A stretch of DNA of 64,000 bases, taken from an uncultured Candidatus Saccharibacteria bacterium. Its GTDB lineage: Bacteria; Patescibacteriota; Minisyncoccia; Phycocordibacterales; G965230995. This document shows positions 3,152 to 25,719 of the stretch, piece after piece (positions within the stretch are counted from its first letter, which is position 1; every line of letters begins with the position of its first letter). The notes under the pieces are model-generated. The model saw only the letters and a list, made by a program, of their open reading frames with translations. It did no database searches and had not been told where the DNA came from. Position numbers and translations under genes: made by a program. The stretch covers positions 73,868 through 137,867 of the forward strand of contig OZ246398.1 in NCBI GenBank assembly GCA_965230995.1. The letters are read 5' to 3'.

Positions 3152-4141
3152 TTAATTCGATAGATATTTTTTACCGACTGAAACTGAGATATATCCAAGA
3201 CCGATGAATATGAACCCAAGTATTATCACTAGAAATGGCCAGGCTATCGAATCTGCAAAATACTTGAATGTAATATAAGAAGAATATCCTATAAAGAATA
3301 GCGATGTGGCAACAAGAGCACTTATACTCTTTATTTTTGTTGATATTGCAAAACAGATGAAGATGACTATGAAATATAGAGCTTCACCTAAACCAGTTTT
3401 AAGTATTTCTGCAATAAGTACACCGGAAAGTATTCCTATGCTTCCGAAAAAATACAAAAGACCAGATAATCTTTTATTCCTTCCCAAAGCAAATGTCCTA
3501 CCTAGCATTAGATAAGAGATACCGACAAGTACAGTCAGGTAGCCAAACAGACTTTCCGTTCCGTTCAAACCAAATAGACCTTCAGTACCGTTCATGTCAT
3601 TTATGAACGCTCCAAGCAATGCAAAGACGAATACGGTACCATGAACAATAGAGAAAAATGATAGGATTGGGTGTTTGTGAATATAATCAAGTATCAGATA
3701 AACTACAAACAAAATAGCAAATGTAACCGCCCCCTGCCACAAAGAAGGAATAGCTGACGTCGTCTCGAATAAAGTAACAAGCGCCCCAATAGGAACAAGA
3801 ACACCTGAAATTGTATGAAATACTGCTCCAATTTGTTCGCCTGGTTTTTTGACAAATAACACAGAACCAATAGAAGCAAATACAATCCCAAGACCTAGAG
3901 TTGAGATTATTCTACCGAAAGACCCGATATCTTCCCAAATGAGCATCATAAAAAATATTATTCCGATTACAACAATTAGTGTACCAATAGAATATAATAT
4001 TTTATTTACAGTAAGCATACCTTTGGTTACAGATTGGCTATTTGCATTAGAAATACCAAAAATATTTGTTATTTCATCCTGGCGAATTTCCCCACTCTCT
4101 AATTTGCTTTTTAGCAAAGATAATAATTGTTCTTTTTCCAT
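3152..4141 (-). CDS. integral membrane protein (multi-TM, N-terminal soluble segment)
   Basis: 329 aa ORF, 8+ hydrophobic segments, no recognisable catalytic motif. Confidence 0.45.
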   Translation of the reverse strand: MEKEQLLSLLKSKLESGEIRQDEITNIFGISNANSQSVTKGMLTVNKILYSIGTLIVVIGIIFFMMLIWEDIGSFGRIISTLGLGIVFASIGSVLFVKKPGEQIGAVFHTISGVLVPIGALVTLFETTSAIPSLWQGAVTFAILFVVYLILDYIHKHPILSFFSIVHGTVFVFALLGAFINDMNGTEGLFGLNGTESLFGYLTVLVGISYLMLGRTFALGRNKRLSGLLYFFGSIGILSGVLIAEILKTGLGEALYFIVIFICFAISTKIKSISALVATSLFFIGYSSYITFKYFADSIAWPFLVIILGFIFIGLGYISVSVGKKYLSN

Positions 4142-4156
4142 TTTTTAATTATTAAT

Positions 4157-4711
4157 TTATAGCACCCAACCGATTAGCTTAAAATTGTTGTCGTTATAAT
4201 AGCTATCTGGCGATGAAATAGTATTCATCTTCATTTTTTTGCCGTCTTTCATTAGATAGTAACCTGATTCTGATCTGCCACCATCAAAAAACAAGAAGTC
4301 ACCTGAGCCTTCGTAGCTCCATTTGAGCATCACACCATCTGGAGATTGAACAAGGTCGCTAAGTTCATTTTTTTCTACTTCTGCAAGTGTAATTTCCTTA
4401 CTAATATTTTTTTCTGTATCGTGTTTAAAAATTCTGACTTTTTTACCTTTTGCAAAATTTTCAAAATCACTTCCCGCTTCTGGTTCTGTATAAGTAAGTT
4501 TTTTGTCTGCAACCTTGTAGTGAGCATTTATGAATTCGAGACAATTTGTCTTTTCATAATAGTATGATCCTCCATCGCAAGTAGCATATACAAAATCATA
4601 ATCAGTTTCGACCACCCTATTTGGAACGTAAACATACAAAGCAACCACAGCAAGGAATATAATTGGAATCAAAATTGCAATAGCAACTATATTTTTTCTT
4701 ATAAAATCCAT
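4157..4711 (-). CDS. hypothetical membrane-anchored protein (single N-terminal TM)
   Basis: ORF track gives 4157..4786. The first 25 codons translate the upstream terminator hairpin, so the start was moved to the internal Met (MDFIRKNIVAIAIL...). Confidence 0.4.
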   Translation of the reverse strand: MDFIRKNIVAIAILIPIIFLAVVALYVYVPNRVVETDYDFVYATCDGGSYYYEKTNCLEFINAHYKVADKKLTYTEPEAGSDFENFAKGKKVRIFKHDTEKNISKEITLAEVEKNELSDLVQSPDGVMLKWSYEGSGDFLFFDGGRSESGYYLMKDGKKMKMNTISSPDSYYNDNNFKLIGWVL

Positions 4712-4752
4712 AATAAGTTTTTTAATTTGTAATGTTTTTATTATAACACAAA

Positions 4753-4780
4753 ACAGCCCCGCCGTAGGCGGGGCTGTTTT
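4753..4780 (-). terminator. rho-independent terminator (bidirectional hairpin) after 4790..6196 gene
   Basis: AAAACAGCCCCGCC-GUAG-GCGGGGCUGUUUU perfect GC-rich stem flanked by A/T runs. Confidence 0.75.
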
Positions 4781-4789
4781 AATCAATTG

Positions 4790-6196
4790 TTATCTAAACA
4801 AATCTAGTAATATATCTAGTATTCCTCTTGATGATTCTCCAACTGATGCAACTGAAGAATCTGAGTCTTCAGAAGCTACTGCGGGAGCAACTATATTGAC
4901 ACCTTCTACTTTTGCAACAACTGGAGCTGACGCCTCGTCTCCTGAGTATGTAATTCTGACAGTATAGTTTTCTGATACAGGTGCATTTTTAGGAATTCTA
5001 ATCAACTGCTTTCCATCATTTGTAGAAACATCGTAAGCATAAGCGATTCCATCTTTAATTAATTCAACCAAAACTTTTTCTGAAGTCTTTAGAGATACAG
5101 ACGCCCAAGTCACAGTCATTGTTCCGCCAATTGCTGACAATACAGAATCGCTATTTGGTGACGTTATCAATATAGCCGGAGCAGGAACAGCAAGAACTTT
5201 AAACGCATCACTCTTATCCTCTGTCACCACTTCACCCTTTGTGTGAGTTACTTTGAAAAAATAGTCTGATCCAGGAACAGCATCCGCTGGGATTTTAAAT
5301 AGTTTTGATTTTATATTTGATACAAAGCTAGAAACTAGAACAGCAGATGAGTCTGTCGAGTTTACATCCCCTTTATATAGTTCAACTTTGTATGAACCGC
5401 CAACTATATTTTCAGTTGTCCATTTAACCTGTATATTTTTCCCAACCGTAACTTCTACACCAGCTGTTGGTTCAACTACAGTAATTGCAGGGAGCTTTAC
5501 TTCTGGAGCTGTGATACTAAATACACCTGACTCTGCTGACAGTGCAGCTGTTGTATTAGATTCAGCAACAACGCTGACCCTTACCTTATAATCATTTCCG
5601 GCTACCAAGGTTTTTTCTGTCTTTACTTGAAAACTCTTTGTATTAGAAATATCTTGACTTGATACAACTACTGAGCCTTTTACGAGTTCAACCTTGAGTT
5701 TCTGTGCAGCAAGCATATTTGTTGTCTTCCATATTGCTTTTATGTTTGTTCCAGCAACAAATGTTGCTCCAGCAATAGGAGCGGTGACTGTGATGGTTGG
5801 ATCTGTTGGTTTTACTCCCAAACATGAAACTTCTTTTATCTTTGCCCTAGTCAAAGGACCTGTCTTTCCATATTCTACAGATTCAGTACTTGTGTCCTTT
5901 GTTACTACTCCCACTTTCTTTTGCCAAGCGAGGAGGGCCTTTGTTGTCAAAGTTCCAAAGTACCCATATTGTCCTTCTGGAACATTAAGTGTTCCATAGT
6001 CCGTAAGGAATAGCTGAAGTTTAGTAACATCACCAACACCTGAAGCAACGCCCGCTACATCTACATCAACATCTCCTTCCCTTAAGAATTTAGTAATATT
6101 TACACATGTTGCGCTTTCTGCCTGAGCCGAAACCCCAGCGATATTAGCAGAAAATGCTAAAGCGATTACGAGAATTGTTAATAAATATTTTTTCAT
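4790..6196 (-). CDS. secreted protein: signal peptide, peptidoglycan-binding (PG_binding_1-like) domain, three tandem ~100-aa Ig-like Ser/Thr-rich repeats
   Basis: 468 aa; signal peptide MKKYLLTILVIALAFSANIAGVSA; LQLFLTDYG...GYFGTLTTKALLAWQKKVGV resembles PG-binding domain; repeats KVELVKGSVV.. / KVELYKGDV.. Confidence 0.55.
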   Translation of the reverse strand: MKKYLLTILVIALAFSANIAGVSAQAESATCVNITKFLREGDVDVDVAGVASGVGDVTKLQLFLTDYGTLNVPEGQYGYFGTLTTKALLAWQKKVGVVTKDTSTESVEYGKTGPLTRAKIKEVSCLGVKPTDPTITVTAPIAGATFVAGTNIKAIWKTTNMLAAQKLKVELVKGSVVVSSQDISNTKSFQVKTEKTLVAGNDYKVRVSVVAESNTTAALSAESGVFSITAPEVKLPAITVVEPTAGVEVTVGKNIQVKWTTENIVGGSYKVELYKGDVNSTDSSAVLVSSFVSNIKSKLFKIPADAVPGSDYFFKVTHTKGEVVTEDKSDAFKVLAVPAPAILITSPNSDSVLSAIGGTMTVTWASVSLKTSEKVLVELIKDGIAYAYDVSTNDGKQLIRIPKNAPVSENYTVRITYSGDEASAPVVAKVEGVNIVAPAVASEDSDSSVASVGESSRGILDILLDLFR

Positions 6197-6295: not shown

Positions 6296-6893
6296 AACGA
6301 CTTCGTTATTTTGTGCGCGCGGGAGGACTCGGTCACTCTCGTGGCTTTTTATTTCGTCCATTTGATGTTCCAGGACTCGGTCACGAATCACTAAGTCTGC
6401 TCATATTGCAAAGCAATATTGCGCGGACTAAGTGTTCGCGACCCCGCCTCACTTCTGAATTCTTTTTGGCAAAAAAGAATTCAGACTCCGCTTCGCTCCG
6501 TGCGTTCCGGCCTTCTCGTCCTGTCTCGAAACACCGGACAACAAAAAAGTGTACTAAGCGTACACTTTTTTGTTGTCAGTGCGCGTGCCAGGACTCGAAC
6601 CTTACAGGTTCAGTACCCCGATTGGATAATTACTTCGTCCTAGACGGACTCGTAATTATGCTCAATCGGGCTTCGAGTCCTGGACGAAAAGTCCCCCGGA
6701 CTTTTCTCACCAGCACAAAACAACTTCGTTATTTTGTGCGCGTGCCAGGACTCGAACCTTACAGGTTCAGTACCCCGATTGGATAATTACTTCGTCCTAG
6801 ACGGACTCGTAATTATGCTCAATCGGGCTTCGAGTCCTGGACGAAAAGTCCCCCGGACTTTTCTCACCAGCACAAAACAACTTCGTTATTTTG
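6296..6893 (-). repeat. tandem repeat array downstream of tRNA-Ile: two identical 157-bp units (6579-6735, 6736-6892) each ending in the 3' 22 nt of tRNA-Ile, plus degenerate older copies and long hairpins (6296-6578)
   Basis: Period 157 bp read directly from sequence (GTGCGCGTGCCAGGACTCGAACC recurs at 6579, 6736, 6893); degenerate GTGACCGAGTCCTCCCGCGCGCACAAAATAACGAAGTCG at ~6296-6330; 18-bp perfect hairpin 6541-6580; 14-bp palindrome 6456-6490. Confidence 0.85.
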
Positions 6894-6966
6894 TGCGCGT
6901 GCCAGGACTCGAACCTGGGACCACGGAGGTATAAGCTCCGCACTCTACCAACTGAGCTACACGCGC
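6894..6966 (-). tRNA. tRNA-Ile (anticodon UAU), no encoded CCA
   Basis: Reverse complement GCGCGUG-UA-GCUC-AGUUGGUA-GAGU-G-CGGAG-CUUAUAC-CUCCG-UGGUC-CCAGG-UUCGAGU-CCUGG-CACGCGC-A; canonical cloverleaf, U33, A37, anticodon UAU. Confidence 0.7.
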
Positions 6967-11165: not shown

Positions 11166-11618
11166 ATGATGCTTTATATGGATTTAGCAAGAAACAAAAA
11201 AGCCACATTTGATTATGAAATACTCGAAAAATTCGAAGCGGGTATCGAGCTTTTTGGACATGAAGTAAAATCTACAAGAAACAAAGGAGTGACGCTTGAT
11301 GGTAGCCGAATAACAGTCCGCGGAGGTGAAGCATATATAATTGGTATGACCATAAGACCCTACCAGCAGGCAAACATAAAAGAAGCATACGAACCAACAC
11401 GCAACCGCCGTTTACTTTTACACAAAAAAGAACTCGGAAAACTCGCCACGGCAGAAGATACTAAAGGATTGACAATCATCCCAATAGCGTTGTATAATAA
11501 AGGAACGAACATCAAGGTTTCAATTGGAATAGCACGCGGAAAGAAACAGTTCGACAAAAGAGAAAGTATAAAAAAACGAGATCTCGAAAGAGATATGGGT
11601 AGAAAATTCAAACGATAG
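11166..11618 (+). CDS. smpB: SsrA-binding protein SmpB
   Basis: 150 aa; FDYEILEKFEAGIELFGHEVKS...GLTIIPIALYNKGTNIKVSIGIARGKK conserved SmpB core; directly upstream of tmRNA. True start may be the internal MDLARN. Confidence 0.9.
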   Translation: MMLYMDLARNKKATFDYEILEKFEAGIELFGHEVKSTRNKGVTLDGSRITVRGGEAYIIGMTIRPYQQANIKEAYEPTRNRRLLLHKKELGKLATAEDTKGLTIIPIALYNKGTNIKVSIGIARGKKQFDKRESIKKRDLERDMGRKFKR

Positions 11619-11670: not shown

Positions 11671-12054
11671 GGGGATGATCGGCTTCGACAAGAAGTTCAA
11701 TATATATGCGCAAAGTGAAGCTCCAGCAACTTCTTAAAAGGCTGGAAAAACATAAGTGCAGACAATTCTGCAGCAACTCCTTCTCCATATTTTGGAACAA
11801 AGGATTTTGCTTTCGCTCTAGCTTAATAGCGGGCGCGCCCAGCCACCTCTCGTCTCGTGAGATGGTCTTGGGTGTCATTTTCAGAGACTCGGTGTTTGCA
11901 TTTCTCTAGGCTAACACTTAAACAAAAGAGATCGGTATAGAATTGTTTTGTTATTTTCAAAGGTTCTATATCTAAATCATAAAAAATAACTAAACTTTGT
12001 AGACACATATACATTTCCTTCTCTGGACGGGGGTTCGATTCCCCCCATCTCCAC
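11671..12054 (+). ncRNA. ssrA: tmRNA (SsrA)
   Basis: 5' GGGGAUGAUCGGCUUCGACA and 3' GGACGGGGGUUCGAUUCCCCCCAUCUCCAC form the tRNA-like acceptor/T arm; internal tag frame ...GTKDFAFALA followed by UAA UAG (11824-11829); terminator hairpin 12061-12090. Confidence 0.85.
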
Positions 12055-12252
12055 ATTTCAAAAATCAGCCCTTTGGGGCGATTTTTGTTATGTGGAGATG
12101 AGAAAGGTCTGGGAGACCTTTTGTGGGGGAATCGAAAGGCTTTTGTGTTGATTTTAGAGTTCGAGGAATGAGAACGAATAAAATCACCAAAAGGCATACT
12201 GTTCATGTAATGAGAGATTCCCCCATCTCTATCACAAAATGAAATACCCTTA

Positions 12253-14310
12253 CTATGAAACAGCTTGATCAAAATCAATTAGATAGAGCCTAGGTGTCCT
12301 TGTCATATCTAATTCTCCATCTTCATCTCTAAAGAAACGTAGACAAAAATTAGCATCGTGAGTATGCCCATGCTTAATATGTAACTTATCAAGCATAGCA
12401 ATGATTCTATCTCTTTGTTCCACTAGATCTGGCGTAAATAGTGTAGTTGAAATCCTCTGCCATGAGGCTAAATCTAAATCAAGGACACCACTATATACAT
12501 CGACTAATCCATTCTCTTTTAAACTATATGATTGAATTGGTTCAATTGGTACATAATCAAAACCGGCCTCCTTCCACTCCTGATGATTTTCATATAATTT
12601 TTGCCACGTTAAAAAAGAAGTTGAATTAATGTGTCTTATAATTATTTTGTCTTTTAATGGACCCCCGACCAGCGTCGTCTCAGATCCTGTTTTTTCAAAT
12701 TTCTTTCTCGAGAATGATTCCGTATTTAAATCTGGATGTTTGTTGTATAAGGGAGCAAATATAACATATTTTAGTAATTTATTTTCTAGAAGAACGTCAA
12801 ATATTTTTTTCCTCTCTGCTTCTGAAACAGACCGAATCATTAGAGCACCTATCCTTTGAATAATAGGATCATTACTTTCGAGCGCTTGTTCAATGAGTGA
12901 AAATCTTTTTTTTACTGGAAGATACTCAATCATTTGAGCACCAATCTTTCGGACTAAAGGATTATTACTTTTGAGTGTTTGCTCGATGAGTGAGATCATT
13001 TCTTCATCCGATACAGACAGAATCATTTCGGCACCGATCTCTTGGACTAGAGGATCATTACTTTCAAGAGCCTGCTTAACAAGTAATGATCTTTCATCTT
13101 CTGGCACATACCAAATCATCCGCATGGCTTCTTTTTGGACATTTGGATCATCACTTTCAAGGAGACGTTGAATTTTTTCAGTGACTATTTGCAATAAAAC
13201 GTCTCTTTCATTTAGTGGAGCATACTTAATCATTTCGGCACCAATCTTTTGAACTGCGTAGTTATTACTTTCAAAGATTTGTCGTATTTTCTTAGTTATT
13301 GTTTTTCTAAGTGAATCTTCTTCTTCATTTCCTGAAACAAACATGGTCATTTCGGCACCAATCTTTTGGACATTTGGATCATCACTTTCAAGGAGACTTT
13401 GAATTTTTTCAGTGACTATTTGCCATAAAGAATCCCTTTCATTTAGCGGAGCAGACCGAACTGTTTGAGCACCGATCTCTTGGACTAGAGGATCATTACT
13501 TTCAAGAGCCTGCTTAACAAGTAATGATCTTTCATTTTCTCGTGCATACTCAATCATTTGAGCACCAACCTCTTGGACTTTAGGGTCTTTACTTTCAAGA
13601 GCCTGCTTGATGAGTAATGACATTTCTTTTACAGGAACAAAACGAATCATTCCAGCACCAATCCTTTGAATCGCAAGGTCATCACTTTCAAGGAGACGTT
13701 GAATTTTTTCAGTGACTATTTTTCTAAGTAAAGATCTTTCTTCATCTTCTGAAGCAGACCGAATTATTTCAGCACCGATCTCTTGAACTAAAGGATCATT
13801 ACTTTCAAGAGCTTGCTTGATGAGCGAAAATCTTTTGTGTGCTGGAGCACACCAAAACAATCCTGCGCTTATCTTTCGAACTTCAGGGTTTTTACTTTCA
13901 AGAGCCTGCTTGATGAGCGAGAACACCTCATCCACTTTAGGACAGTATCGAATCATCTTAACACCAATCTCTTGGACTTCAGGGTTTTTACTTTCAAGAG
14001 CCTGCTTGATGAGTGGATATCTTTTATCTGTTGAAAAATACTCAATCTTTTCAGCACCAATTCTCTGAATCGCAAGATTATCGCTTTCAAGAGCCTGCTT
14101 GATGAGCGAGAATATTTCATCTACAGGAGAATTATTCAATTTTCTTTCAAAATCCGCGACTAATCTTATTCTTTCATCTTGCACTTTACATCGATCATAT
14201 CTTTCGAGATCTTTCTCTGTAATCTTTCCATGACCAGAAATTTGATACATATCGACAGGAAACACCTCTTCTCTTTGTCTACCTTTCTCTGTATTTTGTA
14301 TTTTTTCCAT
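12253..14310 (-). CDS. HEAT/PBS-lyase-like repeat protein (about 13 tandem ~31-aa repeats) with C-terminal ~230-aa domain carrying kinase-like HxD..N and IDFD motifs
   Basis: Repeats of SLIKQALESNDPLVQEIGAEMIR...; C-term HIKHGHTHDANFCL...LYLIDFDQA. ORF track start at 14394 replaced by internal Met (MEKIQNTEK) because the first 28 codons look non-protein-like. Confidence 0.55.
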   Translation of the reverse strand: MEKIQNTEKGRQREEVFPVDMYQISGHGKITEKDLERYDRCKVQDERIRLVADFERKLNNSPVDEIFSLIKQALESDNLAIQRIGAEKIEYFSTDKRYPLIKQALESKNPEVQEIGVKMIRYCPKVDEVFSLIKQALESKNPEVRKISAGLFWCAPAHKRFSLIKQALESNDPLVQEIGAEIIRSASEDEERSLLRKIVTEKIQRLLESDDLAIQRIGAGMIRFVPVKEMSLLIKQALESKDPKVQEVGAQMIEYARENERSLLVKQALESNDPLVQEIGAQTVRSAPLNERDSLWQIVTEKIQSLLESDDPNVQKIGAEMTMFVSGNEEEDSLRKTITKKIRQIFESNNYAVQKIGAEMIKYAPLNERDVLLQIVTEKIQRLLESDDPNVQKEAMRMIWYVPEDERSLLVKQALESNDPLVQEIGAEMILSVSDEEMISLIEQTLKSNNPLVRKIGAQMIEYLPVKKRFSLIEQALESNDPIIQRIGALMIRSVSEAERKKIFDVLLENKLLKYVIFAPLYNKHPDLNTESFSRKKFEKTGSETTLVGGPLKDKIIIRHINSTSFLTWQKLYENHQEWKEAGFDYVPIEPIQSYSLKENGLVDVYSGVLDLDLASWQRISTTLFTPDLVEQRDRIIAMLDKLHIKHGHTHDANFCLRFFRDEDGELDMTRTPRLYLIDFDQAVS

Positions 14311-14408
14311 TATTGATAAATAATATAACGTCTTAATAAAAAATAAAACCCGTTTAAAATCCCATTGCCTATTGCGAGGGTAAACAACAATCACTAATAC
14401 TTAACCAA

Positions 14409-14454
14409 TTGACACCACTAAATAAATACATAGTCTTTAAATCAGGCCAAGGAG
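14409..14454 (+). promoter_or_regulatory. promoter and RBS of GC-rich island 1 (TTGACA ... AAGGAGG)
   Basis: TTGACA at 14409-14414, AT-rich -10 region, AAGGAGG 14448-14454 followed by GTG 14461. Confidence 0.4.
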
Positions 14455-14460
14455 GAATTG

Positions 14461-14750
14461 TGACATTAGTACAAGTCCTTGCGGTTCAGAAACAGAGCGA
14501 ACAACCGCTAACCAAAGGAATGCTCCCAGGGATCATTGCAGAATGCCACAGGTGGCCATGGCCCGGCAGAACATCTGTTCGGTATACCGCCACAAACGGC
14601 AACACCATTGTGGCAACCATGCTACAGATTAACGGTAGCCACACTGTCACGAGCATGCAAAATGCCGTACAGCTTATGCTCACCAGGGGAGAATCTGAAT
14701 TCGTAACCAAAGAAAACGGGGGGCTCATTCTATGGACTGTCGTTCCGTAA
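14461..14750 (+). CDS. hypothetical protein encoded in GC-rich island 1
   Basis: 96 aa from GTG after AAGGAGG (the ORF track uses a longer frame from 14409). Codon usage and G+C are clearly higher than neighbours. No recognisable motifs. Confidence 0.35.
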
Positions 14751-14777
14751 TGCCGGAAGACCTCCGACAGAACGGAG

Positions 14778-14804
14778 AAGGCGCGCCACGGGCGCGCCTT
14801 TCCT
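14778..14804 (+). terminator. rho-independent terminator (GGCGCGCC palindrome hairpin) ending island 1
   Basis: AAGGCGCGCC-ACG-GGCGCGCCUU then UCCUCAUUU. Confidence 0.6.
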
Positions 14805-14811
14805 CATTTAT

Positions 14812-15939
14812 CTACACCCCTTTCTCCAAAATCAAATCCCATTTTGTTCTGAGAATTCTCTCTACTGATTCGTTTATTCTATCCTCACTAATCTCACCAT
14901 TATCTACCGCCTCTAATATCCTTTCGTATATTTGTTTTTGAATGTCTCTCGAATATGTACTGATTATAATATCAACACCGGATAGAATTGCTTTCAGACT
15001 ATTTTCGGCAATGTTTCCACCTACAGAAACCATTTCCATATCATCGGAAATGATCACACCCTTAAAACCAAGCTCTCCTCTCAAAATATCAACCAAGAAT
15101 TTTTCTGAAAGCGTAGCCGGTTTATCATCGACAATTGGCACGACAATATGAGCCGTCATAATCGGAACATAAGGATATTTTTCTATTACTTTTTTAAATG
15201 GCAAAATATTATTTTCCAAATCCTCTTTTGAAATTGAAATCGAAACACCTTTTTTGTGTGGATCAAGAGAAATATTTCCATATCCTGGAAAATGTTTTGC
15301 AACTGGAATAACACCCGAAGATTCATATCCTTTTATCATTTCAATTCCAAGCTCTGATATTTTTTCTGGTGTCGTACCAAAAGTCCTTTTGTATAGATAA
15401 GAATTCCTATCGGTTACATAATCCAAAACCGGAGCAAAATTCATATTTACGCCAATAGAAGAAAGCTCCTCCCCTCTTTTCTTTGAAATTTTAAAAGCAT
15501 CCTCTGTATTTTTAATTTCAACCTGTTGTGTTAATTCAGAGAAAAAATTAAAACGAATTACATCTCCCCCTTCTTGATCGGTAGCGATAAATAGAGGAAT
15601 ATTTGCAAAGTTTTGCATTTGAGAAATCAAATCTCGGGACTGACTCTCATCTAAAATATTTCTACCGAGCAAATTAAAACCTCCAACATTATAATCCTTT
15701 ATCATTTCTATAGTATCGGGATCGAGATTTTTTCCTGGAAGACCGATAATGAGCATCTGACCAATCTTTTCTTTTATCGTCATGGATGACAATTTCTTCT
15801 CTATTTCTACCGAAACAGTATCTTCTTTTGTCTCAATATTGTTATTTTCTATGTCGACATTTTTTTCATTTTTTAAATATACAAAAGAAAAAACTAGAGC
15901 AAGGACAATTACGAGGATTACAAAAAGTTTTTTAAACAT
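14812..15939 (-). CDS. glycoside hydrolase family 3 N-terminal domain protein (beta-N-acetylhexosaminidase NagZ-like), membrane anchored
   Basis: 375 aa; N-terminal TM; KHFPGYG motif and GH3 fold order (IATDQEGG, FAPVLD). Confidence 0.65.
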   Translation of the reverse strand: MFKKLFVILVIVLALVFSFVYLKNEKNVDIENNNIETKEDTVSVEIEKKLSSMTIKEKIGQMLIIGLPGKNLDPDTIEMIKDYNVGGFNLLGRNILDESQSRDLISQMQNFANIPLFIATDQEGGDVIRFNFFSELTQQVEIKNTEDAFKISKKRGEELSSIGVNMNFAPVLDYVTDRNSYLYKRTFGTTPEKISELGIEMIKGYESSGVIPVAKHFPGYGNISLDPHKKGVSISISKEDLENNILPFKKVIEKYPYVPIMTAHIVVPIVDDKPATLSEKFLVDILRGELGFKGVIISDDMEMVSVGGNIAENSLKAILSGVDIIISTYSRDIQKQIYERILEAVDNGEISEDRINESVERILRTKWDLILEKGV

Positions 15940-15980
15940 AAAAGAAGTCTATCATGACAATATGCAAGGATTAAAGCTAT

Positions 15981-16009
15981 TTGACTTTATACACAAAGAT
16001 TGTATTATT
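15981..16009 (+). promoter_or_regulatory. sigma70-like promoter, first of three homologous promoters in GC-rich island 2 (TTGACT-N16/17-TATTAT)
   Basis: TTGACTTTATACACAAAGATTGTATTATT; near-identical copy at 16466-16496 and related copy at 16991-17019 (TTTACT-N17-TATAAT). Confidence 0.5.
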
Positions 16010-16048
16010 ATTTTGGCTTAGAGTTCCTAACACAAGCGGAGAAAAGCG

Positions 16049-16396
16049 ATGAGTGAAGTCACTGTAACCCAGCTCGTTAAACATGAGCACTTCCTGAGGG
16101 ACATCGGGTGTCTGAAGGGGTTCCTCAGTCATCTCGGCTGGCATCTTCCGGAAGATGTATTCGTGGTATGCCTACATCTTACATGGAAGGAAATCACCCT
16201 ACTCATGGTCAAGGAAACAATGGGGATCGGAGTTCCACATAAGTGCACAGTGATGGGTACCACCTCTATCACGGCGGAGAACGTTGTCCGCATGATTGAC
16301 TGGACCTTCAGACACCATTACGAACTCATCGTGAGACCTCCGGACAACAAGTTCCAGTTCCGCTTCATTCATCAACTGCAATCCCCTGGCGCCTAG
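16049..16396 (+). CDS. hypothetical protein A of GC-rich island 2
   Basis: 115 aa, GGAG RBS, GC-rich codons, followed by terminator hairpin 16424-16449. Confidence 0.4.
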   Translation: MSEVTVTQLVKHEHFLRDIGCLKGFLSHLGWHLPEDVFVVCLHLTWKEITLLMVKETMGIGVPHKCTVMGTTSITAENVVRMIDWTFRHHYELIVRPPDNKFQFRFIHQLQSPGA

Positions 16397-16537
16397 GAAG
16401 CGCCACCCTACCCACCAAGACAGCCCACCAAGGCGCGTCTGGTGGGTTTGTCATTTATGCAGAACTTTACTTTATGTATAAAGATTGTATTATAATTTTG
16501 GCTTAGAAGTTCTGAACTCACAACCGGAGACCAGGAA

Positions 16538-16900
16538 ATGGCACCCGCCACAACCAAAGATATCCACATTGGACGCGAACAATTGTATGTGTTCTTAAGT
16601 GGAAAGGATGGACACGGTGGTCTAGAGGCGCAATTCGGAGACAACGGAGTAGTCACCCTACACGTTATGCATCGAGGAGAAGGTTCTGCAAAAACCATCA
16701 CGATCCAAGTAACGATGGAGAGACGTGTTGGTTTCCAGGAAGAAAAGCTAGTGAAGGTGATCGAAGAGTTTGACGGAGAGGAAATCAATGGATGGATTTC
16801 CTCCCTGATGAAGGGAAACAACATTCCACTCTTCTTCTTACCACCCAACCGCTTCCACCTGTTCCATTTCAAAATCGATGATATACCCCCCGGCGTCTAG
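16538..16900 (+). CDS. hypothetical protein B of GC-rich island 2
   Basis: 120 aa, own promoter copy and GGAGACC RBS, followed by terminator 16928-16953 homologous to the first. Confidence 0.4.
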   Translation: MAPATTKDIHIGREQLYVFLSGKDGHGGLEAQFGDNGVVTLHVMHRGEGSAKTITIQVTMERRVGFQEEKLVKVIEEFDGEEINGWISSLMKGNNIPLFFLPPNRFHLFHFKIDDIPPGV

Positions 16901-17065
16901 GAGACGCCACCCCACCCACCAAGACAGCCCACCGAGGCACGTCTGGTGGGTTTGTCATTTATGGCTAAAATATGTGGCTTTTTTGTACTATTTACTTTTA
17001 AACGCGTTTGTTGTATAATATATGAGAAACAGTACCGTACAACAAACCAATTAGGAGACGCTACC

Positions 17066-17563
17066 ATGCGTTACTTCACCATCGTTCTATTCGCGGTCAC
17101 GATGTTCATCACCGGTAGCGGGTGCATTGCCTACTACCAGATCAACGGAAAGGAAGGAGTCCTCGCCGTTCCACCCCTTGTGGGTACGCCGGTGGTGGTT
17201 GTCGCTTCCTGCGACCGCTGTCACTACCGTCACTGCCGTTGCGAGCAGTATGAATACCGCTGGCAGTGCGAGATCTGCAACCAGTACTTTGGTCGGCTTG
17301 CCGACCAATACTGGGACGGAGGACGTCGCACCTGCCGGTGGTGCCATCATGAAAAGTGGCCCTACCGCGCGTGGCAGTGCACAGTGTGCCATGGTTACTA
17401 CTGGCCAGTGGATGTTCGCAACAACATACACCGTGGCCATAACACTTGCTGGCGGTGTCTCGTGAGAGACAACATGGAGTGCGAGCAAGGCTGTAACGAA
17501 CCAACAACACTGCCCTGTCGCAGGTGGTATCATAGCTATTTCGGACCACCTCCTCCGAAATAG
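17066..17563 (+). CDS. cysteine-rich (about 20 Cys, multiple CxxC) secreted or lipoprotein-like protein of GC-rich island 2
   Basis: Start at internal ATG after AGGAGACG RBS (ORF track starts at 16946). N-terminal TM/lipobox-like FITGSGC; CDRCHYRHCRC, CEIC, CRWC, CTVC, CWRC; terminator 17567-17615. Confidence 0.45.
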   Translation: MRYFTIVLFAVTMFITGSGCIAYYQINGKEGVLAVPPLVGTPVVVVASCDRCHYRHCRCEQYEYRWQCEICNQYFGRLADQYWDGGRRTCRWCHHEKWPYRAWQCTVCHGYYWPVDVRNNIHRGHNTCWRCLVRDNMECEQGCNEPTTLPCRRWYHSYFGPPPPK

Positions 17564-17631
17564 CCCCCCGCCAGAGAGAACCCGCCAGTACACGGCGCCT
17601 CTCTCTGGCGGGTTTTCTTTTGTCTTAAAAT

Positions 17632-18087
17632 CTATTTCTTCTTTAGATTGTTTTCGATAATAGTTTTGTATATATCACCTCTTGTGACAATACCGACTAA
17701 TTTGCCATTTTCATCCATTACGGGCATCCTGTGAATACTTCGTGCGAGCATAATTGCGCCAACTTTCATAATAGGATCATCTGGGGAAACAGAAACGACT
17801 TCACGCGACATAAATCTTTCGATTGGGTTCTTTCGTATTTCTTGTATTTTTGATTCTCTTTTTTCTGGATCAGTATAGCTCTCTGGGTTTTCGTAGAAAC
17901 TTCGGTAATAAGGGAAAAGTACTTTGTATAAATCTTTGTCAGAAATCATACCGATAACATCACCGCTTTCATTAACGACAGGACAACCTTTTATACCGCT
18001 TTTTAACAGAAAAGTGGCCGCGTCTTCATAAGTAGTATCAAAAGGTAGAGTAAGCACTGGCGAATGCATTAATTCTTTTGTTTTCAT
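17632..18087 (-). CDS. CBS-domain pair protein
   Basis: 151 aa; two CBS repeats (VMTRDV.. / GIVTRGDIYK), no fused catalytic domain. Confidence 0.7.
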   Translation of the reverse strand: MKTKELMHSPVLTLPFDTTYEDAATFLLKSGIKGCPVVNESGDVIGMISDKDLYKVLFPYYRSFYENPESYTDPEKRESKIQEIRKNPIERFMSREVVSVSPDDPIMKVGAIMLARSIHRMPVMDENGKLVGIVTRGDIYKTIIENNLKKK

Positions 18088-18185
18088 AATTATATAATAC
18101 CACTTTTAGAGAAAGTAAACATAATCTTGCAGTGTATTAAAAATAGTGCTATATTCTCTGTATTCATAAGCCTAATCACACACAA

Positions 18186-18743
18186 TTGAAACGAGACGAT
18201 CGTATCAGAATAAATGAAAGGATTCGCGCGAGAGAACTTCGCGTAGTTGATGCCGAGGGTAAAATGCTTGGTGTTTTGTCTATTGATGAAGCCTTGCGAA
18301 AATCCAGAGAAGCCGGATTAGACCTCATAGAAATATCTCCAAACGCAGTCCCTCCAGTAGCAAAAATAATGGACTACGGAAAATATCTTTACAGCGAAAA
18401 GAAAAAGGCAAAAGAAGTAAAAGCCAAAGCTCACAGTGTCGAGGTAAAAAATATACAGGTAAAAGTCGGTACCGGAGAAAACGACCTGGCCTTGAAAGCA
18501 AGAAAAGTCACCGAATGGCTATCCGAAGGAAACCGAGTAAAAATCGACTTGTTCCTACCTGGTAGACTCAAATATATGGATGAAAAATTCCTAAAAGAAA
18601 GAATTGAAAGAGTATTAAAGCTCGTCTCTGTTCCCTACAAAATTGCTGATAGTGCTAAAAAAAGCCCTAAAGGTATGACTATTGTGATAGAAAAGGACAA
18701 ATCTCAAAAGGAAAACCCTCAGGAAAAACCTGCTCAAAAATAG
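18186..18743 (+). CDS. infC: translation initiation factor IF-3 (TTG start)
   Basis: INERIRARELRVVDAEG...EALRKSREAGLDLIEISPNAVPPVAKIMDYGKYLY core. Confidence 0.9.
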   Translation: MKRDDRIRINERIRARELRVVDAEGKMLGVLSIDEALRKSREAGLDLIEISPNAVPPVAKIMDYGKYLYSEKKKAKEVKAKAHSVEVKNIQVKVGTGENDLALKARKVTEWLSEGNRVKIDLFLPGRLKYMDEKFLKERIERVLKLVSVPYKIADSAKKSPKGMTIVIEKDKSQKENPQEKPAQK

Positions 18744-22953: not shown

Positions 22954-25719
22954 CTATAGATTCTTTGTTGCCTTGTATTTTGCCATTATGGCTTCGTCGA
23001 CTTCTTTTCTGTCTTTACCATATTTTAGACCAGATAATTCTTTGAGAGGTTCGACTTTCTCTTTGTTGCCCTGTTCTGGAGGTAAAATACCTATACTAAA
23101 AGGTTTGATTGGCGTCCCATCCGACAACATTTTTATATAGGCATTTCTATTTTCAATATTCATAAGTTCCCTTGCAGTAAATACAGGTGTAAATTGTTTT
23201 TCAAGGAATTCGGCGTCTTCGGAGCCGACTCTAAAGGCGACCATCGAACCCACGTTACCAAAAACAGAATCACTAATCTTTTCATCAAGCTGTGCGATAA
23301 ATTGATGAGCAATATTTAGAGAAAGTTTATATTTTCTGGCTTCTGACAAAATTGTTGAGATAGAATCCGTGGTAATGTTCTGGAACTCGTCTATATATAG
23401 ATAGAACGGTGGCAAATCCTGACCAAAGGAATCAACACGAGAAAGTGCCGCCATAAGTATTTTACCTACAATAATGAGACCAAGAAGGTTTGCATTTATA
23501 TCACCCAGTCTTCCCTTTGAAAGGTTAACCAAAAGTATTTTCTTTTGATCCATTATTTCACGGAAATTAAAAGATGATTTTTCTTGAGCTACTATCGGAC
23601 GCATAATATCGTTCGAGAGAAAGACGTCGAATTTGCTCGTAATGTATGGCACGATGTTTTTGATATCAGCCTCACCACCAGCTTTGTCTGCGATGTCTCG
23701 CCAGTATCCAACAATTACTGGATTTTTACATCTAGAAAGTTTTAATTCTCTAAAGCCTTTGTCAGCAAGAACCCTCGAAACATCGAGTAGAGTGTTTCCA
23801 GTTTCTGGATCTTCCATCACAAGCATCACTGCATTTCTAAAATACTGTTCGAACATAGGACCACCCGCAACTTTCATATCAAACAATTTGTTGAATATAG
23901 AAAGCATTTCGTTTACCACGAAAGTTTTTTGTTCTGGAAATCTTCTGTCGTATTCAAGCATATTGAGAGAAATCGGTCTCTCAACATTACTTGGATCAAA
24001 ATAGATGACGTCTTCGTATCTTTCTTCTGGTATGGTTGCCAAAATGTCTTGGATATCCGAGCCGTGTGGATCAATCATACAAACTCCCTCTCCGTTTTTG
24101 ATATCCTGAACAACCAAATTTTTGAGGAAGGTTGATTTTCCAGTACCTGTCTGACCGATTGTGTATATGTGTCTCAATCGATCCTCTTTGGACATATATA
24201 TTGGGGTCTCAGAGCTTGAATGTCTGTTTACACCAAGCAAAATTCCCTCTTTAGTGAGCCCTGCTGGAGCCGGAGCCGTAACTAATCTATTGAATTTAAG
24301 ATTACTTGCTGTTTCTATTGCTTTTGTCTGGAAGTGCATTATTGTTGCAACCTCGGAAAGAGAAAGCGGAATATTTTGTGAAGAATTAAAAGTTCGGAAA
24401 GTAAAATTTCTAAGCATATCTGTGAGCGACCCTCGTTTTAATTCCTTCCATACAAAACTGTTGCCTTTTGTGTTTTCAAATTGATTAAAGGCAGATTCGA
24501 TGTCACCCAAAATATCTCTTGCATCTTTTTCTTCTTCTGCTGATACTACAATTCTGATATTTGTTTGAACGATCGGACTACTGATTTTCTTTTTTATTTC
24601 GTCTATAACAGTCTGATCGATTGGATCTTTTTTTTCATCTTCACCTTCTTTTTTCTTTATTGTTTTAAAAATATCTTTGGCTGTTTTGAAAAGCTCCCCT
24701 CCAATAGAATCTGGGATATCTATTGATTCGGACACGTCTTTCCCTTTCATAATTTGCTCGAGGGCATAAGAATATTTTTTTATATAATTATCACCAACTG
24801 GTTTAAAGACAAACTGTATAGATGCTCCCTCGCCTTCTTTTTTCATTTTTGAAAAAGAATTGAGTATTGCGTTTATTGGGTCATGATCAAACAAGTCATA
24901 TGTCTTTATTGGATATATTGGATTTCCACCTGATGTAGCGCAAGCTCCAACGGTGTGACCGTCTTCATTGAAAATATTATAATCGTCTCTTTTTGGTATG
25001 AGCCTTGCTGATGGATATACAGATAGAATATGTTTTTCAAATAATTCTTGTCTTGAATCTGGCATTGCAACAAAAAAAGAATATTCTTCGCCGACATTTG
25101 GCATTGCGAGCTCCATTGTAAAATATTCTAGATTTGGTTCTTTTCCTGTTTGTTGTGAGATAGACATCAAACCTGAAAATAATTGCTCCATCGAAGAAAT
25201 TAATTCTTTGAGTGGTTTTTTATCTTCGTTTTTTTGTTCGGGCAATTGTATTTCAAACAAAGTCATTTTTAATGCTTTCGTGGTCGTATCTTTCGGACTA
25301 AGCCTTGTTTCGTATCCACCTTTTACGAGAGCAACCAACATTCTATGAAAATCGTCCTCGATATGGGGATTTTTCATCTTTGAGATAACAGAAAGAGCAT
25401 TATATACACCTCTTGTTTTTACAAGTGCCATCAATTCGGAAAGTTTTGTATCGTGTTCTTCTGGAGAAATCTTCAAAACAAAACCGGATATTTCGACTTC
25501 AGTCATCTGAGATTTTGGAGCAAGAACATCGTGTGGAAGTTTTTTTCTGTGTAAATCTATTTCGGCTTTGACTAATTTTTCTGTGTCGGGAACCATACCA
25601 GCGTTTTCTGCTGTCTTTTCATGTTCGGCTACTCGTTTCCTGAGATATTCAAGTTCCTCGTAAGGAGTACTAAATTTTTTTTGTTCTTTAAAGAGATCCA
25701 TCGTCCTATTATATACCAT
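22954..25719 (-). CDS. large P-loop ATPase, VirB4/TrbE/CagE-like (type IV secretion or conjugation family, DUF87-type)
   Basis: 921 aa, no TM; Walker A IGQTGTGKST at mid-protein, Walker B LYIDEFQN, C-terminal ATPase domain. Family assignment from motif spacing only. Confidence 0.4.
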   Translation of the reverse strand: MVYNRTMDLFKEQKKFSTPYEELEYLRKRVAEHEKTAENAGMVPDTEKLVKAEIDLHRKKLPHDVLAPKSQMTEVEISGFVLKISPEEHDTKLSELMALVKTRGVYNALSVISKMKNPHIEDDFHRMLVALVKGGYETRLSPKDTTTKALKMTLFEIQLPEQKNEDKKPLKELISSMEQLFSGLMSISQQTGKEPNLEYFTMELAMPNVGEEYSFFVAMPDSRQELFEKHILSVYPSARLIPKRDDYNIFNEDGHTVGACATSGGNPIYPIKTYDLFDHDPINAILNSFSKMKKEGEGASIQFVFKPVGDNYIKKYSYALEQIMKGKDVSESIDIPDSIGGELFKTAKDIFKTIKKKEGEDEKKDPIDQTVIDEIKKKISSPIVQTNIRIVVSAEEEKDARDILGDIESAFNQFENTKGNSFVWKELKRGSLTDMLRNFTFRTFNSSQNIPLSLSEVATIMHFQTKAIETASNLKFNRLVTAPAPAGLTKEGILLGVNRHSSSETPIYMSKEDRLRHIYTIGQTGTGKSTFLKNLVVQDIKNGEGVCMIDPHGSDIQDILATIPEERYEDVIYFDPSNVERPISLNMLEYDRRFPEQKTFVVNEMLSIFNKLFDMKVAGGPMFEQYFRNAVMLVMEDPETGNTLLDVSRVLADKGFRELKLSRCKNPVIVGYWRDIADKAGGEADIKNIVPYITSKFDVFLSNDIMRPIVAQEKSSFNFREIMDQKKILLVNLSKGRLGDINANLLGLIIVGKILMAALSRVDSFGQDLPPFYLYIDEFQNITTDSISTILSEARKYKLSLNIAHQFIAQLDEKISDSVFGNVGSMVAFRVGSEDAEFLEKQFTPVFTARELMNIENRNAYIKMLSDGTPIKPFSIGILPPEQGNKEKVEPLKELSGLKYGKDRKEVDEAIMAKYKATKNL

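Follow-up and report, generated by a model that had tools for sequence, protein, structure and literature searches.

A compact folded unit behind a tmRNA gene and its relatives 3' of tRNA and tmRNA genes in Paceibacteria

The 3' end of the tmRNA gene (ssrA) is repeated in three short copies, two inverted and one direct, immediately behind this gene in the stretch of 64,000 nucleotides of contig OZ246398.1 analysed here (the window). They are the paired strands (helix P1) of one intact folded unit of about 147 nt, 12089-12235. This unit belongs to a recurrent family of structured sequences of about 110-210 nt which are placed immediately 3' of tRNA and tmRNA genes, on the same strand, in Paceibacteria (Parcubacteria), which are CPR bacteria. 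The members share an architecture, a position, a junction with the gene and a folded strand, their helices covary, and they occur in tandem and patchily. The family has apparently not been described so far, and nothing relevant to it was found in the literature. We infer, with about even confidence, that it is a small non-autonomous mobile insertion of the homing type, and the mobility, the enzyme and the RNA or DNA active form that go with this reading are likewise putative.

The unit behind ssrA

The ssrA gene directly follows smpB and is of the standard one-piece form, as Rfam model RF00023 matches it from end to end (model positions 1-374) without interruption (Table 1). The hairpin and T-run that come after it were recognized by eye, with no call by a simple terminator scan. 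This hairpin is the middle of a longer palindrome (12046-12100, with arms of 26 nt that are 85% complementary) connecting the tmRNA 3' end with its own inverted copy. An intrinsic terminator by itself does not explain 12090-12235.

The copies of the ssrA 3' end had been noticed in the original prediction and are real, all of them lying within 180 nt of the gene. The first inverted copy, ATGTGGAGATG (12090-12100), is the exact reverse complement of CATCTCCACAT (12047-12057). The second is also present, with coordinates that had to be shifted by one (GTGGGGGAATCGAA at 12123-12136), and within it only GGGGGAATCGAA (12125-12136) is an exact complement, of 12 nt, of TTCGATTCCCCC (12034-12045). The direct copy is degenerate as had been described: GATTCCCCCATCTC at 12216-12229 equals GATTCCCCCCATCTC minus one C and is followed by TATCAC against CACAT, with two C>T changes and then divergence. 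With the exception of the tRNA-Ser T-arm, no sequence on either strand of the whole 64 kb matches the ssrA 3' 28-mer better than these copies do. When 12058-12252 was shuffled 5000 times with its dinucleotides preserved, the direct match was reached in 4 shuffles and the better inverted match in 17, while both inverted matches together, or all three copies, were reached in none (0/5000 each). Moreover, just one of 318 other windows of 195 nt contained any match of at least 11. The shuffles and this window background rule out chance or low complexity as the source of the copies, and the possibility that they are no better than shuffled sequence, which would have undone the prediction, does not hold.

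The covariance model R2 was built from six units of other organisms (L021, L071, L223, L310, L286 and L270) with no window sequence in it, and it matches 12089-12235 over its full length (model positions 1-139, 60.3 bits, E 1e-13). There are exactly three R2 matches in the window, the other two being the tandem units behind tRNA-Ile (67.3 and 66.7 bits), each of which is closed by a perfect copy of the tRNA 3' end; units of type A reach only 26-44 bits with R2, as cross-matches. The minimum free energy fold of 12089-12235 (-50.9 kcal/mol, z -4.87) has the architecture found in the tRNA-Ile unit and in L021, and the three R2-matched units of the window fold alike. Every helix of the subfamily-B order, P1a - Pa - P1b - AAG - P2 - (G/A)TAC - P3' (TGTAA loop) - direct copy, is present in this fold.

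The unit begins 33 nt past ssrA, on the same strand, and its direct copy begins at GATTCC (T-loop nucleotide 57). Hairpin Pa sits at the acceptor/T-stem junction of the inverted copy and is, by eye, about 80% identical to Pa of the tRNA-Ile units; the P1b pairs covary in the subfamily-B alignment, and the P2 flanks GGCTTTTG...CAAAAGGC are close to those of unit L270. The subfamily-B signature [G/A]TAC..TGTAA[G/T] is present as ATAC..ATGTAAT, and the stem of P3' is partly eroded, one of its six pairs being non-standard (G-A) and one a wobble (U-G). In addition, the two C>T changes in the P1 3' strand give G.U pairs with P1a. The subfamily-A model, R1, scores the unit at 23.7 bits, from which it had been considered a decayed relic; this was dropped when subfamily B and the R2 score were recognized.

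Table 1. Features of the window that are discussed in the text
Feature	Position	Strand	Basis or remarks
Short degenerate unit behind tRNA-Ser(GCU), cut by the window edge	1-77	-	
tRNA-Ser(GCU)	78-170		
Terminator hairpin, subfamily-A unit (core 6379-6515), then degenerate tRNA-Ile 3' copy (6311-6331)	6311-6578	-	32.9 bits
Two 100%-identical 157-nt subfamily-B units in tandem behind tRNA-Ile(UAU)	6579-6892	-	TRF period 157; R2
tRNA-Ile(UAU)	6893-6966		
smpB	11166-11618		SmpB Pfam match
tmRNA gene (ssrA)	11671-12056	+	Rfam RF00023, 150 bits; ARAGORN 11671-12054
Source segment TTCGATTCCCCCCATCTCCACAT: T-loop, T-stem 3' strand, acceptor 3' strand, first trailer bases	12034-12057	+	Sequence, repeat search
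Terminator-like hairpin and T-run (T-run to about 12090)	12061-12088	+	By eye: bulged 7-bp stem
Complete subfamily-B unit, P1a-Pa-P1b-P2-P3'-P1 3' strand	12089-12235	+	Model R2, MFE fold
P1a 5' strand ATGTGGAGATG: inverted acceptor 3' strand, discriminator and trailer	12090-12100	+	Sequence, repeats, fold
Hairpin Pa, GAAAGGUCU-GGG-AGACCUUUU	12102-12122	+	Fold; paired in R2
P1b 5' strand GGGGGAATCGAA: inverted T-loop and T-stem 3' strand, then conserved junction AAG	12125-12136	+	12/12 match, fold
P2, long hairpin, AT-rich version	12138-12194	+	Fold, alignment
Conserved ATAC, then small hairpin P3' with ATGTAAT loop	12196-12214	+	Fold, alignment
P1 3' strand GATTCCCCCATCTCTATCAC: direct, slightly diverged ssrA 3' copy from T-loop nucleotide 57	12216-12235	+	Sequence, fold
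Variable non-syntenic interval, unit to infC	12253-18100		HEAT-repeat protein (-), GH3 (-), CBS protein (-), four small GC-rich ORFs (+)

A family of units at tRNA and tmRNA genes

The conserved core of the units consists of hairpins P2 and P3, together with hairpin Pa, which is flanked by two segments antisense to the T-loop/T-stem 3' strand and to the acceptor 3' strand of the neighbouring gene. The 3' end of the unit is a direct copy of that gene's segment starting from T-loop nucleotide 56/57. According to the structural model, the antisense segments and the direct copy can pair as helix P1, which would close a three-way junction. The order terminator, inverted acceptor, hairpin, inverted T-arm, core and direct copy was found at about 14 of 49 related smpB-ssrA loci. 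Using R1, 45 units (E<0.01) were detected in 80 loci and the window, and 120 in 100 metagenome loci.

Changes on both sides leave the pairing intact in 22 of 28 pairs of the subfamily-B alignment. Among the 120 units 96.5% of the cells are paired and 13 of 17 pairs are compensatory, the counts for these 120 coming from alignments that were fitted to the model structure. None of 500 shuffles reached the observed pairing values, and slid controls collapse. The core sequence is highly conserved. A conserved G.U pair, present in 106 of 116 units, shows that the folding strand is the tRNA-sense one.

With Rfam 15 at gathering scores, the window and eight loci with intact units gave matches to tmRNA and tRNA only; in E-value mode the remaining matches on units were far under the gathering scores, and no intron family scored on intact units up to E=5. 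An intact unit had no blastn match in 50,697 phage records. A loose core pattern was unspecific in IMG/VR, where real units were found on just one contig end (L157).

The units are linked to the genes that precede them. In subfamily A, which is sister to the B of the window, 97 of 123 core-pattern matches are located 20-118 nt behind a tRNA or tmRNA gene of the same strand, and the targets of these 97 units comprise 38 anticodons and tmRNA. Of 63 units, 51 have a direct copy that begins at T-loop nucleotide 56. A perfect inverted T-stem was found in 28 of the 97 (2.5 expected), and 36 units have an inverted acceptor matching at 6 or more of 7 positions (8 expected). The direct copy is well preserved up to the tRNA 3' end and usually not past it. 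Where this distal copy has drifted, the antisense strand still complements the gene at 42 of 54 positions, and compensation towards the drifted copy is rare (5 Watson-Crick, 10 G.U). Selection on helix P1 with the distal copy is thus unsupported, as the antisense strand tracks the gene and seldom compensates for the copy.

Occupancy in related genomes is patchy, with a unit at 15 of 48 tmRNA genes and 6 of 69 tRNA genes. The duplicated segment ranges from 18 to 60 nt, and in young-looking units it extends up to 60 nt, trailer and terminator included. At ssrA of the nearest relative, whose SmpB is 71% identical, the unit is of type A, against the B-type of the window. The cores are not grouped according to tRNA type. 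In L005, tmRNA and tRNA-Ile are followed by an identical P2, and in the window Pa is similar behind the same two genes, such within-genome similarity being seen in few pairs only. Moreover, the units of L036 and L045 are 78% identical against 54% for their tmRNAs. Clearly decayed copies were found behind tRNA-Ser in the window and in L045 and L013. Neither a pair of empty and filled sites nor an excision junction was found; L005 and L014, whose tmRNAs have similar sequences, diverge completely past the gene, and Logan contigs of the same species match the window without differences and break off within the unit, six assemblies stopping at 12199 because of an alternative branch. A recombinase, transposase or reverse transcriptase was found neither in or beside the units examined nor among the larger ORFs covered by the Pfam scans of the 64-kb window.

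Origin of the units and the interval between ssrA and infC

If the units are homing-type insertions, their core would be recognized by a trans-encoded enzyme in the folded tRNA-sense strand (RNA or single-stranded DNA), and the antisense segments would fit the element to the 3' part of the tRNA or tmRNA gene. Insertion at T-loop nucleotide 55/56 would duplicate the gene segment downstream, and therefore the gene would remain whole with a second copy on the far side. Should this be right, Paceibacteria have a widespread, hitherto unannotated folded element which joins the 3' end of nearly any gene for a tRNA or tmRNA. It would account for GC-rich 'intergenic' blocks, tandem repeats and assembly breaks beside CPR tRNA genes, and it would caution against taking duplicated 3' ends for island boundaries. 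It may also be a new and very small way for a mobile element to land safely in tRNA genes, perhaps with guidance by base pairing. Among the structured families of RNA biology it would be a well-supported addition with two subfamilies, more than 150 examples and strong covariation, and it raises the question of which enzyme recognizes the conserved GGUCG/UGACC hairpin beside the T-loop junction.

The conservation of the core and the co-transcription in tRNA operons fit a function as host RNA equally well. The units could be non-mobile cis RNAs encoded by the host, whose antisense pairs with the 3' half of the neighbouring tRNA or tmRNA precursor or with their own 3' copy and whose P1 stacks like an acceptor/T-arm minihelix; they would be excised by tRNA-processing enzymes and serve in maturation, quality control, regulation or another tRNA-like role. 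We consider this a credible alternative, although a rather unlikely one. In tRNA operons, units are interleaved between tightly spaced tRNA genes and must therefore be co-transcribed, and it is the tRNA-sense strand, with its conserved G.U pairs, that folds. The point where Pa leaves, the acceptor/T-stem junction, is where a tRNA has its D and anticodon arms. The strongly conserved core, an antisense strand that follows the functional gene and not the distal copy, and a direct copy usually kept no further than the tRNA 3' end also speak for such an RNA. However, it does not sit well with patchy occupancy, with identical tandem copies and decayed ones (window tRNA-Ser, L045, L013), or with different subfamilies at one locus in related genomes. 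In a true tRNA mimic, moreover, the discriminator, CCA and trailer would stay unpaired, and here P1a pairs with them as well. A terminator often precedes the unit.

The reading as a homing-type insertion can be carried further. The units would then be the guide-bearing non-coding part of a new programmable homing system of CPR bacteria, in which the two-part antisense to nucleotides 54-76 of a tRNA or tmRNA gene, borne by the conserved folded scaffold of Pa, P2 and P3, would direct the putative trans-encoded enzyme to insert at 55/56 with regeneration of the gene. This is speculative and in our opinion unlikely. If it were true, every tRNA gene would be a potential landing pad and the variable genes in the ssrA-infC and tRNA-Ile-recG intervals would be its traffic. 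Either RNA or folded single-stranded DNA that enters via the competence machinery could be the active form.

The copies had originally been read as an integration-site footprint, with the DNA up to about 17.6 kb as possible decayed cargo. As a classical att footprint they would be decayed attL/attR and core-site remnants of an integrase-borne island or prophage in the ssrA 3' end, and the DNA from 12.2 to 17.6 kb would be its decayed cargo. Of this reading, the non-random nature of the copies and their connection with ssrA as a hot spot for insertions are supported. The direct copy begins in the T-loop like displaced tDNA fragments, and ssrA serves as integration site in relatives, where large serine recombinase genes abut the tmRNA 3' end at five loci (L006, L051, L068, L015 and L008) and where, in L003, L006, L052, L209 and L241, islands separate the tRNA or tmRNA gene from a distal 3' copy. 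The DNA downstream is also foreign-looking. Related smpB loci share ftsH, smpB, ssrA, infC and RNase J in synteny, and the HEAT, GH3, GC-rich ORF and CBS genes are absent from 80 of 80 of these loci, so that conserved synteny downstream of ssrA, which would have argued against an island, was not observed. The GC content rises to 47-59% at 14.4-14.8 kb and 16.0-17.6 kb against 37%, and the relatives of the HEAT protein are only 43-49% identical and found in other CPR lineages.

As the source of the three copies, the att footprint is nevertheless largely refuted, and as an account of the locus we regard it as quite improbable. The copies are not scattered remnants; they are complementary strands of one compact folded unit that matches an independent model over its full length. 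The direct repeat, which should mark the far end of the cargo, is 160 nt away from the gene, and no cargo separates the two. No further copy of the ssrA 3' end is present at or before infC (nothing scored 9 or more in 12253-18300). The search for an integrase or its pseudogene near ssrA, by Pfam on the neighbours and on 40 ORFs across the window minus the 29-46 kb block, found none, and tblastn with the serine recombinase of L006 gave no match in the window. Furthermore, the same type of unit stands behind tRNA-Ile, where it has no island signature, and in degenerate form behind tRNA-Ser, and related units stand behind dozens of different tRNA genes in related bacteria. What is left of the decayed island is the non-syntenic, foreign-looking character of the ssrA-infC DNA, with neither integrase nor distal repeat; 12253-18100 may be accessory DNA and is not demonstrably part of the unit.

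Genes between tRNA or tmRNA genes and distal units were observed in L003, L026, L052, L209 and L241. Integron-like cassettes were considered and rejected, as in L241 and L006 islands seem to have inserted separately into the tRNA 3' end and to have displaced an older unit, and because of these two loci we make no claim that units carry cargo.

Local DNA dynamics with no dedicated element (palindrome extension or snap-back synthesis at the ssrA terminator together with duplication by slippage, and perhaps a few matches by chance) would suit the inverted acceptor copy, which forms the right-hand arm of the palindrome around the terminator loop, and the clear tandem duplication behind tRNA-Ile, but they are hardly conceivable as the origin, being contradicted by the family-model match and, with chance excluded, leaving unexplained both the conserved covarying core with Pa behind about 40 genes in many organisms and the fixed junction at T-loop nucleotide 56.

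Comparison with known systems

Genomic islands integrated in tDNA, including those with the T-loop as sublocation, have been described (Williams 2002; Islander, PMC4383910). Islands and their integrase-less derivatives (CIMEs) have in common with the units that they target a tRNA or tmRNA gene in its 3' part, that the gene remains intact with a displaced or duplicated 3' fragment from the T-loop on the far side, and that tandem accretion occurs at one gene. The unit differs in having only about 150 nt and no integrase, and in its covarying folded core and antisense of the target. Moreover, one family of units serves about 40 tRNA targets, whereas islands have one integrase lineage per target. 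At ssrA the non-syntenic foreign DNA of a tDNA island is present, and an integrase or its remnant and a distal direct repeat are not.

Integron attC sites with their gene cassettes and the folded single-stranded attP of CTX phage are imperfect palindromes that contain an inverted and a direct copy of the crossover site. They share with the units paired target-derived arms which conserve structure over sequence, folding of one strand, a bulged element (Pa in the units), a variable terminal structure and arrays. In contrast to integrons, the units have no IntI or Xer recombinase nearby, their arms contain 10-20 nt of the tRNA gene instead of 7-nt R boxes, their core is conserved in sequence, and intervening genes look like separate island insertions (L006, L241). 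The T-loop GTTCRAN (GTTCGAT by eye) has only a partial likeness to the attC box GTTRRRY (the other box being RYYYAAC). A strand-specific folded palindrome with bulges in arrays was found, and an integrase was not found among the scanned ORFs. The comparison is a likeness in the possible way of working and not membership.

The non-autonomous elements of IS200/IS605 (PATEs) and the REP/RAYT elements are small and strand-specific, have no terminal inverted repeats and carry conserved hairpins with a conserved tetranucleotide at the foot. The hallmark of guide-directed homing, in the logic of TnpB omega-RNA and IS110 bridge-RNA, is a sequence borne by the element that is complementary or identical to its own insertion site. 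The units resemble the former in size, strand specificity and lack of terminal inverted repeats, with GTAC or GTGAC at the hairpin foot, and the latter in carrying sequence complementary and identical to their insertion site. They differ from IS200/IS605 and IS110 in that they duplicate 18-60 nt of the target and in that TnpA, TnpB and DEDD recombinase were not found nearby, and from the TnpB and IS110 guides in their two-part antisense, both parts of which pair with one strand. The units are not classed with PATE or REP elements, as this duplication is present and no TnpA, TnpB or RAYT was found in the scanned ORFs of the window. TIGR-Tas arrays (PMC12045711), which use guides and occur in CPR, have units of 36 nt and no resemblance.

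Group I introns are inserted in the T-loop of tmRNA (PMC11915505). Their junction is at the same few T-loop nucleotides and a structured RNA pairs across it, as in the units; in these, however, the gene is uninterrupted, its complete 3' end comes before the unit, and the core, which lacks group I helices, is too small.

Viral TLS, mascRNA and the model substrates of RNase P are examples of tRNA-like structures and acceptor/T-arm minihelices. The units differ from them in having a three-way junction in place of the T-loop, in a P1a that ties up the discriminator and trailer as well, and in that each copies its own neighbouring gene. The likeness to such structures is in the stacking of P1a and P1b as acceptor and T stems, with a hairpin exiting where the D and anticodon arms do and a 3' strand identical to that of the real tRNA.

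The unit behind ssrA

The window derives from a Paceibacteria/Parcubacteria (CPR) bacterium whose SmpB is at most 62% identical to that of species representatives, all of them Parcubacteria-type MAGs. The smpB gene is directly followed by the tmRNA gene (11671-12054/56), behind which the original prediction had placed three short copies of the ssrA 3' end. All three are present in the sequence (see the table); the second had been positioned one nucleotide off. Except in the T-arm of tRNA-Ser, nothing in the window matches the ssrA 3' 28-mer better than these copies, and the three occurred together in none of 5000 dinucleotide shuffles.

The stretch 12088-12235, folded alone, forms the helices P1a (8 bp), Pa (9 bp), P1b (9 bp), P2 and P3' (MFE -50.9 kcal/mol, z -4.87), and the tRNA-Ile unit and the unit of locus L021 fold into the same topology. 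The covariance model of subfamily A (R1) gives this unit only 23.7 bits because it belongs to subfamily B, in which (G/A)TAC and a small hairpin with a TGTAA loop take the place of P3. This subfamily comprises the ssrA unit and the 157-nt tRNA-Ile units of the window and units at the compared loci L021, L071, L223, L270, L286 and L310; in an alignment of eight sequences, 22 of 28 pairs remain paired through two-sided changes. The covariance model of subfamily B (R2), trained on six foreign units only, matched the window three times, namely at the tRNA-Ile units (67 bits each) and, at full length, at 12089-12235 (60.3 bits, E 1e-13), while cross-matching A-type units at 26-44 bits only. It follows from the fold and the R2 match that the three copies make up a single helix: the two inverted copies are its 5' strands (P1a and P1b), the direct copy is its 3' strand, and G.U pairs remain where the latter carries two C>T differences. 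The ssrA-linked unit is intact and not a scar.

Six independent Logan assemblies of the same organism (loci L321 and L322) match the window at 100% identity as far as 12199, where all of them end. This position is the exact end of P2/ATAC, at which the target-specific part of the ssrA unit starts, and no 14-mer or longer word from its surroundings is repeated elsewhere in the window. The break would point either to a sibling unit at another place of the genome or to a polymorphism in structure that starts at that boundary. The start of L321, at 6887, coincides with the edge of the tRNA-Ile repeat array.

Features of the window associated with the units and with the ssrA-infC interval
Feature	Position	Strand	Description
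tRNA-Ser(GCU) and unit	1-170	-	tRNA at 78-170, then short degenerate unit GGAATTGGAAGCCGAAATGGGGTCGGCGCGAAGCGCCGAC...ATTCCCGCC, truncated at the start of the window
tRNA-Ile(UAU) and array	6311-6966	-	two 157-nt units, terminator hairpin, A-type unit (core 6379-6515), degenerate tRNA 3' copy (the fourth)
Inverted copy 1	12090-12100		ATGTGGAGATG; exact, acceptor 3' strand and trailer
Inverted copy 2	12125-12136		GGGGGAATCGAA; exact, T-loop and T-stem 3' strand
Direct copy	12216-12229		GATTCCCCCATCTC; ssrA 3' end minus one C
HEAT-repeat protein	within 12253-18100		relatives only 43-49% identical, in other CPR lineages
GH3 enzyme	within 12253-18100		ssrA-infC interval
CBS protein	within 12253-18100		ssrA-infC interval
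Four small GC-rich ORFs	14461-14800 and 15960-17640		47-59% GC (genome 37%); no Pfam match; promoter-like and terminator modules repeated
Small GC-rich ORF, Cys-rich	17066-17563		
Upstream modules of GC-rich ORFs	~15975-16048, ~16470-16537		near-duplicates
Terminator modules of GC-rich ORFs	~16388-16460, ~16887-16965		

A family tied to tRNA and tmRNA 3' ends

The adjacency of smpB and ssrA is kept among related loci, and about 14 of 49 carry inverted and direct copies of their own tmRNA 3' end within 300 nt past ssrA, sometimes as two tandem units. The order is invariant: a terminator-like hairpin, the inverted acceptor strand, a short GC hairpin (Pa), the inverted T-arm with AAAG, about 100 nt with conserved GAGSCGGGGTCG...YGTGACC, and the direct copy. 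RNAalifold folds 13 units into a three-way junction, 11 of whose 17 pairs stay paired despite changes on both sides. R1 detected 45 units (E<0.01) across 80 loci and the window, also 3' of tRNA-Ile and tRNA-Ser genes. In the window ssrA, tRNA-Ile and tRNA-Ser are each followed by one or more units, so that all three t(m)RNA genes bear them; the two 157-nt units behind tRNA-Ile(UAU) are a 100% identical tandem according to TRF. A spurious-looking ORF (6313-6786, + strand) overlaps this array.

A metagenome scan with the A-type core pattern returned 123 matches, 97 of which sit 20-118 nt 3' of a tRNA or tmRNA gene on the same strand, representing 38 anticodons and tmRNA; where tRNA genes are closely spaced in operons, units are interleaved between them. 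The inverted T-stem is perfect to the local gene in 28 of these 97 units (2.5 expected) and the inverted acceptor matches it at 6 or more of 7 positions in 36 (8 expected). In 51 of 63 units T-loop nucleotide 56 is the first base of the direct copy, which mostly stops at the tRNA 3' end; in eight units identity extends 10-60 nt further, through trailer and terminator, as is also seen at L047 and L012. An alignment of 120 metagenome units, itself fitted to the model, has 96.5% paired cells and compensatory change in 13 of 17 pairs; these pairing values were reached in none of 500 shuffles, and slid controls collapse. Moreover, a G.U pair in P3 is kept in 106 of 116 units, which identifies the tRNA-sense strand as the folding strand. 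That the ssrA feature fully belongs to a recurring, strongly structured family tied to tRNA and tmRNA 3' ends is well supported, as is its architecture. This family has no match in Rfam or in the phage collection and no description in the literature searched.

Many units (such as those of L036, L060 and L212, and 6490-6500 in the window) share the motif GAGCGA(A/C)G(G)CGA in their P2 and P3 loops; as ACGAAGTGA, it also stands in the linker immediately 3' of some tRNAs. An optional small hairpin, GCGTACTCGC, lies within the T-loop part of the direct copy at L034, L201, L224, L233 and L270. One contig classed as viral (L157 2806-3223, IMG/VR IMGVR_UViG_3300033463_005745) ends in two tandem units fitted to a tRNA with T-arm GGGATTTGAA; the contig could be the flank of a provirus or a CPR fragment classed wrongly.

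Variable DNA beside the unit-bearing genes

The original prediction, confirmed in its observation and partly supported in its interpretation, took the copies for the integration footprint of an island. As attachment scars they do not hold, being strands of one folded unit, and the ssrA-infC interval contains neither an integrase nor a distal copy of the ssrA 3' end. The genes between ssrA and infC are indeed not conserved: those for the HEAT, GH3 and CBS proteins and the GC-rich ORFs are absent from all 80 related loci, in which ftsH, smpB, infC and RNase J are syntenic. The interval is thus variable, partly foreign-looking DNA, and its four GC-rich ORFs resemble small gene modules of recent acquisition or duplication. 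That it represents decayed cargo, proposed up to about 17.6 kb, agrees with this variability but not with the missing integrase and distal copy, nor with its position beyond the unit and not between repeats; such an origin is possible but unproven.

A second variable interval lies beside a unit-bearing tRNA gene. Downstream of the tRNA-Ile array, 3152-6196 (- strand) encodes a PG-binding/Ig-like protein of 468 aa, a 209-aa protein and a DUF2157-like membrane protein; the 80 related loci lack all three but keep the flanking recG.

Large serine recombinase genes adjoin the tmRNA gene on the opposite strand at the compared loci L006 (10825-12450), L051, L068, L015 and L008. In L006 the final codons (..GGIEPP..) overlap the tmRNA T-arm, and beyond the island lie a displaced 3' fragment and a structured unit of older date.

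Possible mobile insertion or host RNA

Guide-directed homing elements typically carry sequence antisense to their own insertion site, and the units might in this respect be likened to group II introns, IS110 bridge RNAs and TnpB omega-RNAs. We infer that there is an even chance of the unit being a small non-autonomous homing-type element, which would insert at a t(m)RNA gene and duplicate the 3' segment of its target. Mobility is favoured by the identical tandem units 3' of tRNA-Ile, by decayed copies and by the patchy A-type occupancy in relatives (15 of 48 tmRNA and 6 of 69 tRNA genes). Moreover, ssrA of the nearest relative found (SmpB 71% identical) bears an A-type unit, in contrast to the B-type one of the window, and the units of L036 and L045 are 78% identical while their tmRNAs share just 54%. 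The cores are not grouped by tRNA type, median identity being 0.626 for the same tRNA on different contigs against 0.624 for all other pairs. Hairpins are common to different targets within a genome: P2 of locus L005 is identical behind tmRNA and tRNA-Ile, and Pa of the window is nearly alike behind both. No recombinase, transposase or reverse transcriptase was found in or beside the examined units or among the larger ORFs scanned of the 64-kb window, and comparison of L005 with L014, which diverge after the gene, revealed no empty target site.

The main and serious rival is a host RNA function, for which it speaks that the antisense strand keeps pairing with the gene where the distal copy has changed. 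At 54 positions (77 units) at which the distal copy differs from the gene, the antisense still pairs with the gene at 42, and with the distal copy at 5, plus 10 G.U. As the antisense follows the gene and not the distal copy, selection on P1 is not demonstrated, and the antisense is apparently tied to the gene itself.

Genes lie between the t(m)RNA gene and a distal unit in L003, L026, L052, L209 and L241. Since in L241 and L006 islands seem to have inserted separately into the tRNA 3' end, we make no claim that units carry cargo. The window also encodes a VirD4/TraG-like coupling ATPase (DUF87, T4SS-DNA_transf) and ComEC (22954-25719 and 49099-50580), functions in DNA uptake or transfer that may be relevant should the units move as single-stranded DNA.

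Elsewhere in the window, a GC-rich (47%) ORF of 203 aa without Pfam match (46959-47570) has GGGGTCG motifs nearby on both strands (47537, 47948). At 54574-63951 a two-gene module, consisting of a TrmB-type regulator and a Peripla_BP_6 binding protein, occurs four times in succession.
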